DNA from: Acidobacteriota bacterium
GTDB taxonomy: Bacteria; Acidobacteriota; Blastocatellia; RBC074
Length of the DNA stretch: 57,083 bases
Direction of reading: 5' to 3'
NCBI GenBank assembly: GCA_022072205.1
Contig: JAJVID010000065.1
Location: 1 to 57,083 of the forward strand
Position 1 is the first letter of the stretch; each line of letters begins with the position of its first letter. Below, piece by piece: positions 6,332-57,027 of the stretch. The translations under genes and the position numbers were made by a program. The notes under the pieces are model-generated. The model did not search any database and was not told the DNA's origin. It saw only the letters and a program-made list of their open reading frames with translations.

Positions 6332-6410
6332 AGCCACAGAGGCCGCAGAGAGCACAGAGACAAATAAATATGCGACTTTCACCTCTGTGTTCTCTGTGCT
6401 CTCTGTGGCT
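6332..6410. repeat. Hairpin built from tandem 9-nt CACAGAG units (family copy 1)
   Basis: Left arm AGCCACAGAG-GCCGCAGAG-AGCACAGAG, right arm CCTCTGTG-TTCTCTGTG-CTCTCTGTGGCT. The same architecture occurs at 52624-52702 and 56951-57027. Confidence 0.9.
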
Positions 6411-49078: not shown

Positions 49079-49798
49079 TTGGTGCCTGAAGACAAAATAA
49101 ATGCCGCTGGCAGCAGGCTGTTAGCCGCGCTGCCGGCGAATGAATACCGACGAATTCTCCCCTACCTTGAACTTGTTGAACTCAAACAAGGCGAACGTAT
49201 CTATTCCGCGCGACAGAAGATTGACTACGCCTACTTCCCCACAACGGCGTTGCTTTCGCTGGTAGTTTTGTCGCGGAACGGCGATCTGGTCGAAGCCGGG
49301 ATATATGGCAGCGAAGCGCTGGTCGGAGTTTCCCTGCTGCTGGGCGCTGACTTTTCGCCTTTCCAGATAGAGGTGCAGATCGGAGGAACGGCGCTCAGAA
49401 TAAAAGCGGAGATTTTGAGGGATTTGTGCGGCAAAGCGTCTTGCGGTCTGCTGCATCATTTGCTGCGTTACGCGCACACATTGATGGTTCAGATGGCGCA
49501 AATGACCGTTTGCTGCAGCTTCCACACTGTCAGACAGCGTCTGAGCCGCTGGCTGCTGACGGCGCAAGACCGCATCCAGTCCGACCGAATCCCGCTGACC
49601 AAAGAGATTATCGCGGGAATGATCGGTTCGCGCCGCCCCAGGGTCAGCATCGAGATCGGTTACCTGCAAAGCGCCGGTCTGATTCAATCCAATCGCGGGT
49701 TCATCAGTATCGTTGACCGCCAGGGATTGGAAGACGCCTCCTGCGAATGTTATCGCGTGATCAAGGGTGAGGTTGACAACCTGCTCAACGGCAAATGA
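49079..49798 (+). CDS. Crp/Fnr-family transcriptional regulator
   Basis: cNMP-binding-like N-domain (LVELKQGERIYSARQKIDYAYFPTTALLSLV) and HTH region (RIPLTKEIIAGMIGSRRPRVSIEIGYLQSAGLI). TTG at 49079 or GTG at 49082 follows a GGAGAG SD. Confidence 0.85.
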   Translation: MVPEDKINAAGSRLLAALPANEYRRILPYLELVELKQGERIYSARQKIDYAYFPTTALLSLVVLSRNGDLVEAGIYGSEALVGVSLLLGADFSPFQIEVQIGGTALRIKAEILRDLCGKASCGLLHHLLRYAHTLMVQMAQMTVCCSFHTVRQRLSRWLLTAQDRIQSDRIPLTKEIIAGMIGSRRPRVSIEIGYLQSAGLIQSNRGFISIVDRQGLEDASCECYRVIKGEVDNLLNGK

Positions 49799-50387
49799 AG
49801 CCTGTGTTGTTGACGCAAACGATGCGCGGGCCGTAGTCGCCGACCGTGACGACGCTCACCGAGGCCACGCTGATTTCGATGCGGTGAAAGAGGTCGAGCG
49901 CGATCCCGGCGTAATAAGCTATCGCCGATTTGATCGGGTCGCCGTGACTCACGACGGCGACCGTCTGGCTGGGATGCCGCTCGCGCAATCGTTCCAGCGC
50001 GGCGATCATTCGCGCCTGCGTCTCTAATTGCGTCTCTCCGCCCGGCGCGCGCGTCAGGCTGCGCAGCGAATTGAACCGCCGCCAGAGCGGTTCGTTGTTC
50101 AGATCGGACAACTCACGCCCAGTCCACTCTCCCAAAACGATCTCGCCCACTTCTTCAACGATCTGAACCTCAAGGCCGAATCTCCGGCTGATCGGCTCAG
50201 CGGTTTCGCGCGCGCGTTCGAGCGGACTGCTGTAAATCGCCTTGACCTCAGCGCCCGCCAGCCGTTCAGCCAGTTTCGCGGCTTGCGCGCGCCCTTCGTC
50301 GTTCAGATGAACGCCCGGCGTCCAACCGGAGACGGCCTTGTCCACAAGGTCTGTCATTCCGTGTCGAATCAGCAGAAATCGAGTCAT
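49785..50387 (-). CDS. Histidine phosphatase (PGAM-like) family protein
   Basis: 200-aa ORF: FLLIRHGMTD (RHG motif), SSPLERARETAEPI, VVSHGDPIK. Confidence 0.9.
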   Translation of the reverse strand: MTRFLLIRHGMTDLVDKAVSGWTPGVHLNDEGRAQAAKLAERLAGAEVKAIYSSPLERARETAEPISRRFGLEVQIVEEVGEIVLGEWTGRELSDLNNEPLWRRFNSLRSLTRAPGGETQLETQARMIAALERLRERHPSQTVAVVSHGDPIKSAIAYYAGIALDLFHRIEISVASVSVVTVGDYGPRIVCVNNTGFICR

Positions 50388-50393
50388 GGTTGT

Positions 50394-50885
50394 TCACTCC
50401 CATCCGAAAAAATTCTTCGCCCAGGCGAACGATACGCTGGCGCGTCGCGCAGCCTCGCAATCGCTCTCAGAATCTCCGACGAACATAGTTTCAGCGGGCG
50501 CGACGTCGCGCGAATGCATGATTTCAATCAACATTCCGGGCCGGGGTTTGTGGCAGCCGCAATCATCCTCCAGCGCGTGCGGACAGAAGCGAATCGTAAC
50601 GCTCGCCGGATCGCAACCAGTGGCCGCGACGATCATATCTTCGAGCAGTTGATACGCCATCCGACGGCTGAGATGGCCATAAGCGACCTGATCCTGATTC
50701 GACGCCACACCCAGCGCCAGCTTGCGCTCGCGCCAGTTGACGCCCGACAGCGCCTCTTTGACCTTCGGCATCAACTCCCACTCGCCGGGAGCATGCGGGC
50801 ACGGTTTCCCGGCGACGGTCGTTCGGCGCAGCGTGCCGTCGGCGTCGAAGATGATCAGCTTGATTTGTTCGGGAATGTCCATCAT
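50394..50885 (-). CDS. HAD-IIIA phosphatase, GmhB / histidinol-phosphatase-like with Zn motif
   Basis: LIIFDADGTL, LGVASNQ, FCPHALEDDCGCHKPRPGML (the CPH...CxC-KP zinc loop of GmhB-type enzymes), FVGDSESD. The ATG overlaps the upstream stop (ATGA). Confidence 0.85.
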   Translation of the reverse strand: MMDIPEQIKLIIFDADGTLRRTTVAGKPCPHAPGEWELMPKVKEALSGVNWRERKLALGVASNQDQVAYGHLSRRMAYQLLEDMIVAATGCDPASVTIRFCPHALEDDCGCHKPRPGMLIEIMHSRDVAPAETMFVGDSESDCEAARRASVSFAWAKNFFGWE

Positions 50886-52600
50886 CGAATCTCCAATCGC
50901 AGCAGAGACGCATAACGATCAACCTGCATCTTGAACCTCACCGCATCGGCGGAGCCGTTCAACACCGTCGCAGCCAGCGTCGCGTAACCGAGCCGGTAAG
51001 CCGGATAAGCAATCAGAAAAAACGGCAACCGCTCAGCGACATTGCGATCACCGCTCAGCGCGCGGTATTGATTGATCAGATAATCCTGCTGCTCCGCGCT
51101 CAACGAAAATTCAACACTGGTTCCGGCGATGTCCCAGGCGATGTCCTGCGGCCCCGGAAAAAAATGGTCGTCGTGATGATCAACGCCGTCGGTCTTGATG
51201 AAGCGGTCTCCGGCGCGCAGCCATTCGTGCGGCGTCATTCGCCCGTCAATCGCCGTGATCGAATCGCTTTCATCAGAGCCTCTCAACCATTCCAGCTTTT
51301 CAGCCCATTCTTCGCCCAAACCTTCGGCGACGTTGATTCGGATCATCTCCGCCAACTCTTCTCGCGTGGCGCCGGCGCTTGACGGAAAATGCTTTCGCAG
51401 ATGAGCCAGGTAGCGAGCGATTGTGTCGAGCAACCGCCGATCAACTTCTCCGCTCCGCAGTGGCCGCCCTTGAACAAATTCAGTGATCAGAAAACCGTCG
51501 CTCAATCCGAACACTCGCGGGGCAAATCCCGCTTCAGCCAGCGCACGGGCGCGTTCGAGTTTCTGCTCGCCGTATCGCCCCAGCCCGGCGAACTTCAGCC
51601 AGAGCCTTTCCCTTCCCTGCGTCCGGCAAAGATATTTGCGCCGCTCGTGCTGAGGCTGCGATGGCGGATAATCGTTTTCGTCATTGTAGAAAAGCTTCCG
51701 CCACGCGCCCGCCGACAGATCAGTCATTTCACTGCGCGCAAGCGATTGCGCAAGCCTGCCGCTCTCGATCCAGACCTGCTCAAAACTCGCCGCGTATTTT
51801 CGATGCCTGCGCCAGCGCTCGCGCGCCGATTCCGAGACAAACTGCGAACCGTCGGGAACCCAGCCTGGAAAGAAAACTATCCGCTCATCGCCGGCGCCGA
51901 GTTCCGAAAGCCTGCGCGCGACGCACGCGAGCGAGGAGCCGCTCAACCCCGGCCCTTCATCAACAATCAGAAAGTGTGCGCCGTCGAACGAGCGCCAACG
52001 GTCTTCAACCGCCTGCGCAAGCTCCAGCCTGCGGTCGAACGGATGCCCGCGAGGGCGCACGGTGAATGATTCGATCTCGACTCCGCATTCAGCCAGAGCC
52101 GCGCCAACAACTGATGAAAGGCTCGCGCCGATGCCTCGCAGGCCGATGACCACAGCGCTGCGCGGGCGTCGTTCATGAAAGAAGCCAGCCGCCGCTTCAA
52201 GATAAGTTTCGGGATAAAGGCCGTAATAGACGTAACCTTCAGGCGCGCCTATTTGAATCGAATGCGGAAGTCCGCGCAGGCTCGGATCATTCAAGCGTCC
52301 GTTCAACTCGGCAATCAGCGGCCCGATCCTTCCGCGCTCTTTTCTCCACGACAAACAAAACACGCGGCCGATCAGCAAACTCATTCGCCTGAAGGCGCGC
52401 AAGGTCGGGCAATCGGAATCCGCTTCGGGCGACAGCGCGTCGGCCACGCCCGCTTCAATCTCCCCGAAATCAATCAGCAGCGCGACGGCTTGATCCTGAT
52501 TCGCTAAACCGCCGCGCTCATATCGCGCCAGATCGCCGCGGAAGCGCGCGAGCAGTCGCGAAACCTCGAAGGTCTGCTTTGTCGAGCGGTAAACAATCAT
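50882..52600 (-). CDS. 572-aa two-module protein: PRTase-like N-terminal half fused to an APH/kinase-like C-terminal half (atypical catalytic loop)
   Basis: N-half: VVIGLRGIGASLSSVVGAAL...HFLIVDEGPGLSGSS (PRPP-loop-like). C-half: WLKFAGLGRYGEQKLERARALAEAGFAPRV...FLITEFVQGRPL...IDGRMTPHEWL...FIKTDGVDHHDDHFFPGPQDIAWDIAG (aminoglycoside/choline-kinase-like layout). Confidence 0.6.
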   Translation of the reverse strand: MIVYRSTKQTFEVSRLLARFRGDLARYERGGLANQDQAVALLIDFGEIEAGVADALSPEADSDCPTLRAFRRMSLLIGRVFCLSWRKERGRIGPLIAELNGRLNDPSLRGLPHSIQIGAPEGYVYYGLYPETYLEAAAGFFHERRPRSAVVIGLRGIGASLSSVVGAALAECGVEIESFTVRPRGHPFDRRLELAQAVEDRWRSFDGAHFLIVDEGPGLSGSSLACVARRLSELGAGDERIVFFPGWVPDGSQFVSESARERWRRHRKYAASFEQVWIESGRLAQSLARSEMTDLSAGAWRKLFYNDENDYPPSQPQHERRKYLCRTQGRERLWLKFAGLGRYGEQKLERARALAEAGFAPRVFGLSDGFLITEFVQGRPLRSGEVDRRLLDTIARYLAHLRKHFPSSAGATREELAEMIRINVAEGLGEEWAEKLEWLRGSDESDSITAIDGRMTPHEWLRAGDRFIKTDGVDHHDDHFFPGPQDIAWDIAGTSVEFSLSAEQQDYLINQYRALSGDRNVAERLPFFLIAYPAYRLGYATLAATVLNGSADAVRFKMQVDRYASLLRLEIR

Positions 52601-52623: not shown

Positions 52624-52702
52624 AGCCACAGAGTTCACAGAGTTCACAGAGATCACGGAGAAATCGTCAAAGTCCTCTGTGCTCTCTGTGTTCTCTGCGG
52701 CT
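52624..52702. repeat. CACAGAG nonamer hairpin, copy 2
   Basis: AGCCACAGAG TTCACAGAG TTCACAGAG ATCACGGAG ... CCTCTGTG CTCTCTGTG TTCTCTGCGGCT. Confidence 0.9.
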
Positions 52703-52730: not shown

Positions 52731-53618
52731 CTAAGCCGCATACCGCCGCGTCATTCGCGCGCAGAATTCGGCGAACTCTTCGAGCTGTTTCGGCGGGCTG
52801 GTGTGGTGCCGGCGCAGCCCGCGCGATTCGGGCGTGAAGCAAAACGTGAGCGTCACGTCGAACTCTTCGAGCGCCTTCATCTGCCGGTCGAACCACGCGT
52901 CGGCGTTCGGACGCAGACTGTCGGCCCAGCTCAACCCCGTGCGCAGGCGCTTCACGCCGAGCCGCCGCATCCATTTCACGGCATCATCCAGGCGGTGATC
53001 TTCAAAATGAAACCACTGACAGAGGCCGAGCGCGGGCGCGTAGTCGGCGAATTGTCTGGCCGCGCGTTTCGGCGCGCCGTCTTCGCGCAGCAAACCCATG
53101 TAAAAATGGCGATAGTAAGCCGATCCTTCGGCCTCGCGGTGCCGCGTCGTCGCGGGCCACGCGCGCGGCAGATCGTAAAGGCTGTACCAGTGAATCCGCT
53201 CGACGGCGCCGACCAGCAATTCAGCCGTGCGTCGCAAGCCGAACTCCTGAATCTCTTCAGCGCCGAAAGTAGAGACGCCGACTTCGGAAACCCACACCGG
53301 CAAACTGGTCACCGATTGAATCTCGCGCAACTTGTCCGGCCATTCGTGAATCTGCCAATGATTCCAGTCAAGCGGGAACCCGTGCGCCGCCACCACGTCA
53401 ACGTACGAAAGCACGCCCTGCCCGCGCATGTTCAGGATGAAGTCCGGATCAATCGGCGAAATGCCGCCGAGGACTTTCAACAGTCGCGGATTTTCAGCCG
53501 CTACGGCGGCCGCCGCCAGCTTCACCATTTCACCGTAAAGCCGCCATTCGGGATCAATCTCGAAATCCCAATGCGATTTGTTGTTCGGTTCGTTCCAGAA
53601 CATTACTGCTTCGATCAC
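52731..53618 (-). CDS. Glycoside hydrolase clan GH-A (beta/alpha)8 barrel, apparently circularly permuted (beta4-beta8 then beta1-beta3)
   Basis: GTG start at 53618 after AGGAGAAG. The N-terminus is already the acid/base strand MIEAVMFWNEPNN, followed by VDVVAAHGFP, the nucleophile strand LPVWVSEVGVS and IHWYSLYD. The usual C-terminal GLLREDGAPKRAARQF is followed by N-terminal-type LGVKRLRTGLSWAD...FDVTLTFCFTP...EEFAEFCARMTRRYAA. Confidence 0.7.
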   Translation of the reverse strand: MIEAVMFWNEPNNKSHWDFEIDPEWRLYGEMVKLAAAAVAAENPRLLKVLGGISPIDPDFILNMRGQGVLSYVDVVAAHGFPLDWNHWQIHEWPDKLREIQSVTSLPVWVSEVGVSTFGAEEIQEFGLRRTAELLVGAVERIHWYSLYDLPRAWPATTRHREAEGSAYYRHFYMGLLREDGAPKRAARQFADYAPALGLCQWFHFEDHRLDDAVKWMRRLGVKRLRTGLSWADSLRPNADAWFDRQMKALEEFDVTLTFCFTPESRGLRRHHTSPPKQLEEFAEFCARMTRRYAA

Positions 53619-53639
53619 GATCTCTGCTTCTCCTGCTCT

Positions 53640-54416
53640 TCAATCTCCATAGGCTTCACTGGACTGTTGATTCACGGCCGGCCACTGACCGTTCAAAACC
53701 TCGATCGCATCGCGGTAACCGCGCAGCGTGCCGACATCAACATAAGCTTGCCCGGCTCGCACACCCACCGCTTTGCCGCCTTCGGCCAAATAAGCGTTGA
53801 CCAGCGTCCCGACGTATTCATCCGCGCGGTCGCGTTTGAGCCAGAGGCTGTGCAACGCGTCGAGCGTCCGCCCCGGCATCTTGAACGCGCCCCAAACCCA
53901 CGATGAACTCGCGCCCTGCCGTTTGACCTGAATTTCCAGCACTCGCCCGTTCTGATCGGTCACCACTGCGTCGAAGAATTCCGGACGTTCGACCGGAAAA
54001 AGCAGAAACGAGAAATCGCCATCGCCGAGCGCGTTGAACGCCTCTTCGGGAAACCAGATCGTATCGGGCAGACCGATCAACACACATTCGTCGGGATGGA
54101 TCAAAGGCAGCGCGCGAAAAATGGCGTCGCACAATCCGGCTGGGCGCGGCTGCACAGCGTAACAGATGCTGGCCTTGCCGTATTCGCCGCTGTAATCTCC
54201 CCCGAAATATTCAAGGATGTCCGATTTGCCCGGCGAGATGACGAAGCAGAGTTTCGTCGCTCCCGCTTTGAGCATGCGTTCGACCAGATATTCGCTGACG
54301 GCGCGCAGCCGTTCCGCCCCGTTGTCAAACCGGCTGCCGATGGGCAGCAACTCTTTCGAGAAAGCCAGCGGCTGAATACGGCTGCCCGCTCCGGCGGCTG
54401 GAATGATTCCCCACAT
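53640..54416 (-). CDS. Sugar-1-phosphate nucleotidyltransferase (NTP_transferase family)
   Basis: ORF 53640..54470. ATG at 54416 (MWGIIPAAGAGSRIQPLAFSKELLPIG) carries the G-x-G-[ST]-R signature. The longer version needs a TTG start. Confidence 0.85.
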   Translation of the reverse strand: MWGIIPAAGAGSRIQPLAFSKELLPIGSRFDNGAERLRAVSEYLVERMLKAGATKLCFVISPGKSDILEYFGGDYSGEYGKASICYAVQPRPAGLCDAIFRALPLIHPDECVLIGLPDTIWFPEEAFNALGDGDFSFLLFPVERPEFFDAVVTDQNGRVLEIQVKRQGASSSWVWGAFKMPGRTLDALHSLWLKRDRADEYVGTLVNAYLAEGGKAVGVRAGQAYVDVGTLRGYRDAIEVLNGQWPAVNQQSSEAYGD

Positions 54417-54470
54417 CGGACAAACCTCTCGGAAAAATTGGCAGGGTAGGTCGCCGACTCGCCCAACCAA

Positions 54471-55577
54471 TCAGGGCAAAGCCCGCGATGAACTGGCCGC
54501 TTGCCGCACGCCGCCGTAAGCCGATTCGAGAATGCTCTCAAGTTCAGCCGCGCGACGTTCGGCGGAATGCTCTTCAAGCGCGCGAGCGTGCGCGCGCTGC
54601 GCCATCCGGGCCAATTCTTCCGGCGTCGCTTCCATCGCCGCGATCACGTCGCAGGTCGAACGCGCGATAAGAATCTCATCGCCAGGCTCGAAGAAATGAT
54701 CAAGCCCTTCCCACCAGTCGCTGACGATCGGAGCGCCGCAGGCGGCGGCCTCGAACAGGCGGCCCGACGGACACCAGCCCATTGCGGCCATCGCGCCGCG
54801 CGTCACGTTCAGCGTCAGCGTTGACGAACAATAAAACGCGTTGTGCTTCGCGGGCGGGACGTGGCTTACGAAATGAATGTTCTCAGCCCAGGGGAAGGTT
54901 TCGGGATAGAGCGAACCGCCGATCAGGAAGCGCCGTCCGGGCAACCGTCGCGCGGTTTCGATCAGCAGAGTGTTGAGCGCCGCCTGACGATTTTCGGCAT
55001 AAGCGCCCAGGTAAGATAAATCCGCCCGATAGTTTTCGACGGCGGGCGCCGGGCAATGAACCGCCGGATCAACGCTGCCGTAAAGCGGCGCGACGCGGCG
55101 AGCGCCCAGACGTTGCTTCAATTCGGTCAACGCTTCGCCGCCGGTATAACTCAACACCAGATCGAAGTCTCCAAGCCCATCAGGGTTCAGATAGGGGACG
55201 TGTTTTCCCTTGCGCAGTAGTTCGAGCGTGACCGGTGTGTCCAGATCGTAATAGACCCGCGTCCGCGCGGTAGACGAAAGCGCGAGGTCGGAAGCGGCGA
55301 CTCCATCCGGGCAATATGAAGTCACCATCGCCACGTCGGCCCCTGCCAGATGCTTGCGCGCTTCCGGCAAGATTTCCTCCCATCGCTGGTAGAGCCGAAG
55401 TTCCACGCCGGGAATTTCCGTCAGGTCACGATGGGCGGCGTAATAGGGCGTATCGCGCTCGAAGAAGACCGTCCTGTGTCCGCGCCGTTCCAGCGCCCGG
55501 CACAACCCACGCCACAACGTTGCGTGCCCGTTGCCCCACGATGAGCTGATTGAAAGCCCGAAGATAACCAGTTTCAC
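54471..55577 (-). CDS. CgeB-like glycosyltransferase, paralogue 4 (closest to paralogue 1)
   Basis: GTG start after GAGG: MKLVIFGLSISSSWGNGHATLWRGLCRALERRGHRTVFFERD...LFEAAACGAPIVSDWWEGLDHFFEPGDEILIA. Confidence 0.85.
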   Translation of the reverse strand: MKLVIFGLSISSSWGNGHATLWRGLCRALERRGHRTVFFERDTPYYAAHRDLTEIPGVELRLYQRWEEILPEARKHLAGADVAMVTSYCPDGVAASDLALSSTARTRVYYDLDTPVTLELLRKGKHVPYLNPDGLGDFDLVLSYTGGEALTELKQRLGARRVAPLYGSVDPAVHCPAPAVENYRADLSYLGAYAENRQAALNTLLIETARRLPGRRFLIGGSLYPETFPWAENIHFVSHVPPAKHNAFYCSSTLTLNVTRGAMAAMGWCPSGRLFEAAACGAPIVSDWWEGLDHFFEPGDEILIARSTCDVIAAMEATPEELARMAQRAHARALEEHSAERRAAELESILESAYGGVRQAASSSRALP

Positions 55578-56950: not shown

Positions 56951-57027
56951 AGCCACAGAGCGCACAGAGATCACAGAGGCAAATTGACCTGCTCTGTGCC
57001 TCTGTGTCCTCTGTGGTCTCTGTGGCT
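56951..57027. repeat. CACAGAG nonamer hairpin, copy 3
   Basis: AGCCACAGAG CGCACAGAG ATCACAGAG GC ... GCTCTGTG CCTCTGTG TCCTCTGTG GTCTCTGTGGCT. Confidence 0.9.

Follow-up and report, generated by a model that had tools for sequence, protein, structure and literature searches.

The window analysed here, the 57,083-nucleotide contig JAJVID010000065.1 (assembly GCA_022072205.1) from an Acidobacteriota bacterium of the Blastocatellia, carries at 52731-53618, on the minus strand, a gene for a 295-residue protein that is almost certainly a natural circular permutant of a clan GH-A (beta/alpha)8 glycoside hydrolase (GH). The chain opens at strand b4 with the Asn-Glu-Pro acid/base motif (Glu10), runs via b7 with the nucleophile Glu112 to b8, passes through a 12-residue linker into b1, b2 and b3, and ends with helix a3, the barrel being closed by pairing of the first strand of the chain with its last. 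The strands thus do not follow one another from b1 to b8 along the chain, as is the rule in clan GH-A, but run from b4 to b8 and then from b1 to b3; this altered order changes the connectivity, not the fold. The break would lie in the a3-b4 loop, on the barrel face opposite the active site, and the new linker on the same face, so that, by TIM-barrel topology, the catalytic face should be unchanged. The gene and its parts are:

52731..53618, minus strand: complete coding sequence of the predicted permuted GH-A glycosidase, 295 residues, GTG start, stop codon at 52731-52733 (list of open reading frames)
53067..53618, minus strand: residues 1-184, strands b4-b8 with their helices, the canonical C-terminal two-thirds, here placed first (blastp to canonical relatives and model strands)
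53031..53066, minus strand: residues 185-196 (RAARQFADYAPA), linker joining the ancestral C-terminus to the ancestral N-terminus, between the blastp-matched halves
52734..53030, minus strand: residues 197-295, strands b1-b3 and helix a3, the canonical N-terminal third, here placed last (blastp to canonical relatives and model strands)

Homology in swapped order

Swapped-order homology to natural canonical relatives confirms the permutation. phmmer, run exhaustively against 1.84 billion representatives, gave 1306 matches. When the two halves were used as separate blastp queries against the proteins fetched by that stage, 184 proteins contained both in the order seen in the window, and 14 full-length proteins contained them reversed and abutting. 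In all 14 of these canonical relatives, the counterpart of residues 1-190 lies at positions ~111-305 (30-40% identity, E 1e-20 to 3e-39) and that of residues 194-295 at positions ~5-110 (32-42% identity, E 6e-14 to 5e-20): two segments homologous to one and the same relative are exchanged, and the termini of the query become neighbours there. In the relative P0189, for example, query residues 197-294 align to 10-109 and residues 1-184 to 111-292. The linker residues 185-196 correspond in the alignment to the free tails of the canonical relatives.

The original prediction had proposed that joining the C-terminus to the N-terminus would recreate a canonical junction, and this is what the alignments show. 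A re-permuted sequence (residues 194-295 followed by 1-193) can be aligned over its whole length with the natural canonical relatives, at 31-41% identity and unbroken at the junction; the native C-terminus (…RRYAA) followed by the native N-terminus (MIEAVMFWNEPNN…) falls on the contiguous stretch …RYG-xxFxxVELWNEPNN… with a single-column gap. The cut is in the a3-b4 loop, where no residue has been lost.

The same pattern appears against PslG, an endoglycosidase of Pseudomonas aeruginosa. A profile of the family in native order meets PslG in two swapped stretches, residues 197-293 on chain positions 21-128 and residues 3-163 on 132-300 (a weak match), and the re-permuted protein, compared with the sequences of the PDB, matches PslG across the junction (query 6-265 on chain 26-302, E 2e-4, also weak). 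These matches are weak, yet their pattern is exactly that expected of a permutant. A profile of the canonical-order relatives finds PslG in one stretch (17-295 on chain 29-327, E 6e-13), together with parts of many GH1 and GH39 chains.

Curated profiles recover less. In Pfam, the native protein has one sub-threshold match, to PF11790 (Glyco_hydro_cc) over residues 3-146, with 16.8 bits against a gathering threshold of 21; moving residues 186-295 to the front raises the score to 20.1 bits, still below 21. Neither the native nor the re-permuted window protein matches any NCBIfam family or PF01229 (GH39). In an alignment of 61 members (60 natural canonical relatives and the re-permuted window protein), PF01229 matches three, with a best E of 2.2e-5, and no member reaches any Pfam family threshold; a precomputed PF11790 match is carried by a minority of the homologues. 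Because the permuted proteins and their canonical relatives are both sub-threshold yet GH-A-like, we place them in clan GH-A, nearest to PslG/GH39 and outside the families modelled by Pfam.

Predicted structure and catalytic residues

Two AlphaFold models were compared. The native model, built with an alignment of 37 homologues, is a single domain with eight strands (residues 2-9, 47-50, 75-80, 108-113, 141-146, 198-201, 224-230 and 254-261) and a last helix at 279-293, with a predicted local distance difference test (pLDDT) of 81.8 and a predicted TM-score (pTM) of 0.84. Its first strand, at residues 2-9, ends in the WNEPN motif, in agreement with the earlier assignment of the N-terminus to b4. 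The re-permuted model, for which the window protein was folded with the 60 natural canonical relatives as alignment, shows the same elements in canonical order (pLDDT 92.7, pTM 0.91). All the motifs quoted in the original prediction are present in the two models on the strands and helices to which they had been assigned.

Foldseek searches of the PDB contrast sharply between the two. The native model gives only five matches at E<=1e-3, the best with E 7e-5, and these are generic or designed TIM barrels and partial matches to GH128, GH2 and GH53, as expected of a sequential aligner given a permuted barrel; this result is uninformative alone and is useful as a contrast. The re-permuted model gives 557 PDB chains at the same cut-off, headed by PslG (E 6e-19, TMq 0.80, 326 columns) and followed by GH39 beta-xylosidases and then by GH1, GH53, GH5, GH2, GH10, GH128 and GH164, all of clan GH-A; among the top 50 matches listed, all 50 are members of GH-A families. 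In the predicted structures the protein forms a single (beta/alpha)8 catalytic barrel.

These results bear on the objection that there is no permutation and that the C-terminal ~100 residues are an unrelated domain on a truncated barrel, or that an ordinary topology was mis-assigned. The Pfam match confined to residues 3-146 and the Foldseek alignments of the native model to mere parts of GH-A structures would suit this idea. However, residues 194-295 have their counterpart in the first 110 residues of 14 canonical relatives and in the b1-b3 region of PslG, the native model is one domain of eight strands, and the sequence, once re-permuted, performs as a complete GH-A barrel. The swapped homology, the PslG profile matches and the re-permuted Foldseek result refute the objection, to which we give very little credence; the C-terminal 110 residues, which the original prediction had named as the place where it could fail, turn out to be homologous to canonical b1-b3 (residues 194-295). 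A circular permutation of a GH-A barrel, as that prediction proposed, accounts for the swapped halves in the 14 canonical relatives, the swapped match of the native profile to PslG and the Foldseek contrast.

The predicted catalytic residues are encoded as follows:

53589..53591, minus strand: codon of Glu10, predicted general acid/base, in WNEPN at the end of b4, ten residues from the N-terminus; invariant in both forms
53283..53285, minus strand: codon of Glu112, predicted nucleophile, in WVSEVG at the end of b7; invariant in both forms

Both glutamates stand where clan GH-A has them, the acid/base in an Asn-Glu-Pro motif at the end of b4 and the nucleophile at the end of b7, and W8-N9-E10-P11 and E112 are invariant in the permuted family as well as in the combined alignment with canonical relatives. 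In a HMMER alignment, E10 pairs with E139 and E112 with E250 of the PslG chain. The catalytic residues of PslG are Glu165 (acid/base) and Glu276 (nucleophile) (PMC11912335), which means that chain and published numbering differ by +26 for both glutamates; the same offset in both pairs makes the mapping self-consistent. Other positions typical of GH-A are likewise invariant or nearly so: R226 on b2, H79 on b6 and W144 on b8. The segment that follows b8 (residues ~150-176, LPRAWPATTRHREAEGSxYYRHFYMGL) is near-invariant among the permuted proteins but varies among the canonical ones, and probably determines the form of a specific substrate site; no part of the native model has a lower confidence.

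Family distribution and history of the permutation

The permuted order is not peculiar to this genome. A word-indexed search found at least 8000 homologous clusters, all at E<=1e-3; among the 120 matches listed, nearly all have 290-296 residues and are ~77-93% identical to the window protein. Named sources are Blastocatellales, Bryobacteraceae, Polyangium aurulentum, Verrucomicrobiota, Chloroflexota, Nitrospirota, Longimicrobiales and Alphaproteobacteria, and the family is ~80% identical across Acidobacteriota, Myxococcota, Nitrospirota, Chloroflexota, Verrucomicrobiota and Alphaproteobacteria; more divergent permuted members (41-50% identity) occur among the 50% representatives. The original prediction had allowed that an order shared by the whole family might be an ordinary topology misread. 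The order does hold family-wide, in at least 8000 clusters, but the permutation stands, since the canonical order is kept in a sister family of ~1900 clusters (in a search seeded with P0189) and, to our knowledge, in every solved GH-A structure. What follows from the family-wide order is that the event is ancient and not local to this genome.

The immediate surroundings of the gene are:

53619..53639, minus strand: 21-nt spacer between the stop codon of the upstream gene and the GTG start, with an AGGAG ribosome-binding site at 53630-53634 (read from the sequence)
52627..52699, no strand assigned: palindromic hairpin of CACAGAG repeats in the 130-nt gap 3' of the gene, one of three copies in the window

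The stop codon of the upstream nucleotidyltransferase gene (53640-53642) lies 21 nt upstream of the GTG, and this spacer leaves no room for further N-terminal coding sequence; in other phyla, the end of the upstream gene overlaps the start of the permuted GH gene by 4-8 nt. On the 3' side, the stem of the hairpin begins ~28 nt past the stop codon (folding energy dG -52.2 kcal/mol, z -4.23). The tight bounds described earlier (the 21-nt spacing, the ribosome-binding site and the hairpin 28 nt past the stop) all read as stated, to which we add the strand, minus, which had been omitted. The CACAGAG element itself is a dispersed palindrome of 9-bp-periodic units with hairpin copies at 6335-6407, 52627-52699 and 56954-57024; the surroundings of the latter two were examined, and both lie directly past gene ends. 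Its pattern was matched 13 times against 0.01 matches expected by chance, and it looks like a REP-like (repetitive extragenic palindromic) or terminator-like repeat family.

Could the strand order nevertheless be a local artefact, arising from misassembly, from a recent rearrangement or from an error in gene calling? The only point in favour of this is that natural permutants of TIM barrels are rare a priori. The same 295-residue architecture is found in at least 8000 clusters, in the complete genome of Polyangium aurulentum and in metagenome-assembled genomes of six or more phyla, and the identical protein occurs in the same gene order on an independent NCBI contig; these observations refute an artefact, which we regard as next to impossible. 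Together with the upstream genes that abut or overlap its start, they indicate that the permuted gene is inherited as such.

A neighbour-joining tree built from 12 re-permuted and 34 canonical sequences separates the permuted from the canonical forms by one split in 100 of 100 bootstraps. Given this single split and the canonical order of the solved GH-A structures, the simplest history is one ancient permutation of a canonical ancestor, and the tree suggests such a single event. The ancestor would have been a PslG/GH39-like family with normal strand order, in which the permutation happened once, long ago, to become fixed in what is now a very large and strongly conserved family.

As to the route, duplication followed by truncation is the commoner documented one for natural permutants, and it is the one that the original prediction favoured. 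The linker (…PKRAARQFADY-APALGLCQWF…) resembles a complete C-terminal helix fused straight to the usual N-terminal leader, as expected of an in-frame fusion of tandem copies, which makes a duplication-and-truncation origin plausible; this much of the proposal fits, and the remainder is conjecture, since no intermediate turned up among the 388 relatives fetched. The same absence favours another route, in which the gene was split at the a3/b4 loop and the pieces were re-fused in reverse. The cut, precisely in the loop and without residue loss, is compatible with either. Against fission stands the linker with its complete helix and leader; a split two-gene version was not seen either, most half-length matches coming from short contigs and being uninformative. 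We consider fission unlikely. Among the relatives, P0122, P0131 and P0132 are unusually long (468-505 residues), with low-complexity stretches rich in Arg, Ala and Pro that interrupt the GH similarity, and P0131 and P0132 start, by eye, with methyltransferase-type sequence; all three are probably read-through or frameshift chimeras of a methyltransferase-GH junction in high-GC assemblies, not true fusions.

Several points weigh against a permuted GH-A hydrolase: (i), the window protein lies below every curated family threshold, PF11790 in either order included, and has no NCBIfam match; (ii), the structural evidence consists of AlphaFold models, and one of these was predicted for an artificial sequence with canonical relatives as its alignment; (iii), residues 151-171, invariant in the family, are of low confidence in the native model; (iv), the keeping of both glutamates is no proof of hydrolysis; (v), none of the 388 fetched relatives is a tandem-duplicate intermediate (b1-3/b4-8/b1-3 or b4-8/b1-3/b4-8).

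Operon, function and comparison with known systems

The permuted GH gene is the third of six genes in a minus-strand operon, the other five being:

54471..55577, minus strand: CgeB-like glycosyltransferase (PF13524), first gene of the operon (Pfam)
53640..54470, minus strand: sugar-1-phosphate nucleotidylyltransferase (PF00483), directly upstream of the GH gene, which it adjoins in other phyla too (Pfam)
50882..52600, minus strand: 572-residue protein without Pfam match, next gene downstream, its C-terminal part weakly kinase-like
50394..50885, minus strand: HAD-IIIA phosphatase, fifth gene
49785..50387, minus strand: histidine phosphatase-type protein, sixth gene (sub-threshold TIGR03848 match)

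The 572-residue protein has a weak kinase-like match to a GntI model (residues 345-513, E 8e-5) and partners of 47% identity in the loci of Alphaproteobacteria and Nitrospirota. With 201.2 bits, the product of the histidine phosphatase gene falls slightly short of the cut-off of 203.85 for TIGR03848 (MSMEG_4193 family putative phosphomutase). The same six genes are present in a Blastocatellales genome and on the NCBI contig (L009) that encodes the identical GH; on L009 the 572-residue partner is called as two open reading frames of 435 and 154 residues, perhaps because of a frameshift in the assembly.

In Alphaproteobacteria, Nitrospirota and Polyangium the cluster is larger. Its additional genes include up to four for PF13524 glycosyltransferases and one for a GT4, and it carries a TIGR04290 methyltransferase gene (392 bits) directly upstream of the GH gene and overlapping it, as well as a PIG-L deacetylase or acetyltransferase, a PHP phosphoesterase, an epimerase, DUF4202 and a B12/radical-SAM enzyme. 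PF13524 glycosyltransferases are present in one to four copies in every permuted-GH locus examined. In locus L002 (8914-11497) the genes after the GH gene encode a PIG-L deacetylase and a GT4 whose matches to BshA/MshA-like proteins are weak, and in L004 (8878-11081) they encode a GT4 and an acetyltransferase; these downstream genes loosely recall the first steps of bacillithiol or mycothiol synthesis, which is only a lead. When the window is compared with L001, L002 and L004, no gene of the cluster is as conserved as the GH, which keeps 80-81% identity between phyla where the neighbouring genes keep 47-73%, a constraint that is unusually strong for a small glycosidase.

What would such an enzyme do? 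The window protein starts at b4 without a signal peptide, and no obvious exporter gene is present in the operons examined; we therefore propose a cytoplasmic role. From this context, the protein probably trims or remodels the sugar made by the cluster, as a retaining beta-glycosidase or transglycosylase of the cytoplasm; we infer the retaining mechanism, the location and the processing role, as we do the route of permutation. Alternatively, the barrel might be permuted without acting as a hydrolase in vivo, being a transglycosylase that builds or rearranges the cluster glycan, or a non-catalytic sugar-binding subunit of a biosynthetic complex. This is suggested by the biosynthetic, not degradative, character of an operon that sets glycosyltransferases and a nucleotidylyltransferase beside the GH, by the ~80% identity across phyla, the highest of the operon and more to be expected in a complex subunit than in a hydrolase that trims, and by the frequent fusion of the canonical relatives to a sugar-nucleotide epimerase/dehydratase domain. 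The glutamates, the Asn-Glu-Pro motif, R226, H79 and W144, invariant or nearly so, speak against a pseudo-enzyme, whereas a hydrolase and a retaining transglycosylase share the same machinery and are inseparable by sequence. We hold this alternative to be possible but the less convincing of the two, and keep trimming or remodelling by an active cytoplasmic enzyme as the working assignment.

Natural circular permutants of TIM barrels are few. In a wider interpretation that we judge evenly balanced, this would be the first natural circular permutation recognised in clan GH-A, the protein would form with its canonical sister a new unclassified GH family, and it would be the most conserved enzyme of a widespread cytoplasmic sugar-biosynthesis pathway. 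That pathway would comprise CgeB-like glycosyltransferases, the nucleotidylyltransferase, the TIGR04290 methyltransferase, the kinase-like protein and the phosphatases, in soil and freshwater bacteria of many phyla, and the ~80% identity across phyla would mark the GH as its key conserved component. We found no published account of a GH-A circular permutation, of the permuted family, of its TIGR04290 partner or of the cluster, although literature coverage is incomplete and priority uncertain; PMC12137362, considered as a prior account, was rejected since it cites only unrelated permutation papers. Both topologies persist as large sister families at ~30-40% identity, a natural experiment on how a barrel tolerates new termini, with the acid/base in the permuted form only ten residues from the N-terminus. 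There is also a practical side: linear profile methods detect about half of the domain, so that thousands of genes carry weak or borrowed names ('beta-xylosidase', 'CDP-paratose 2-epimerase'), and a model in the permuted order would mend their annotation.

Among the closest known systems is the canonical-order sister family, which has the same catalytic and hallmark residues but a normal strand order and much greater internal divergence. A C-terminal extension of more than 100 residues is present in 41 of 132 canonical relatives and, where tested, is a NAD-dependent sugar epimerase/dehydratase domain (P0243, P0250, P0276-P0311 and locus L007, 8001-9641); none of the permuted members examined has an extension of this type. 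Stand-alone canonical members carry the misleading inherited name 'CDP-paratose 2-epimerase'. The epimerase-fused canonical gene of L007 lies in a cluster with radical-SAM/B12, GT4, PF13524 glycosyltransferase and epimerase genes that resembles the permuted Polyangium locus L001; such a cluster is absent at both stand-alone canonical loci examined, L006 and L008.

Permuted glycosidase barrels have a precedent: the GH70 glucansucrases, circular permutants relative to GH13 of clan GH-H, are the textbook case of a natural permutation fixed family-wide (PMC5216370, PMC11299179). Unlike the window protein, GH70 enzymes belong to clan GH-H, are alpha-retaining with an Asp nucleophile, are large, multidomain and extracellular, and have another cut point. 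The GH39 beta-xylosidases (2bs9, 1px8, 4ekj) form the second structural tier (E ~1e-12, TMq 0.70-0.76) and share the clan and the catalytic layout; the window protein differs from them by its permuted order and by the lack of an accessory beta-sandwich and of a PF01229 match, and the database label 'beta-xylosidase' on the permuted family would be a name transferred from GH39. Once the order is restored, the best match in both sequence and structure is PslG, the GH39-like endoglycosidase of the Psl exopolysaccharide pathway of P. aeruginosa (PDB 4zn2, 5bx9, 9g17). PslG is canonical from b1 to b8, with an N-terminal membrane anchor/signal region and a C-terminal beta-sandwich in a crystallised chain of 416 residues, whereas the window protein is a bare permuted barrel of 295 residues, ~20% identical to it, with operon partners unrelated to the psl genes. 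Like PslG, however, it is a (predicted) glycosidase encoded inside a polysaccharide biosynthesis cluster, and the acid/base and nucleophile glutamates of the two align.

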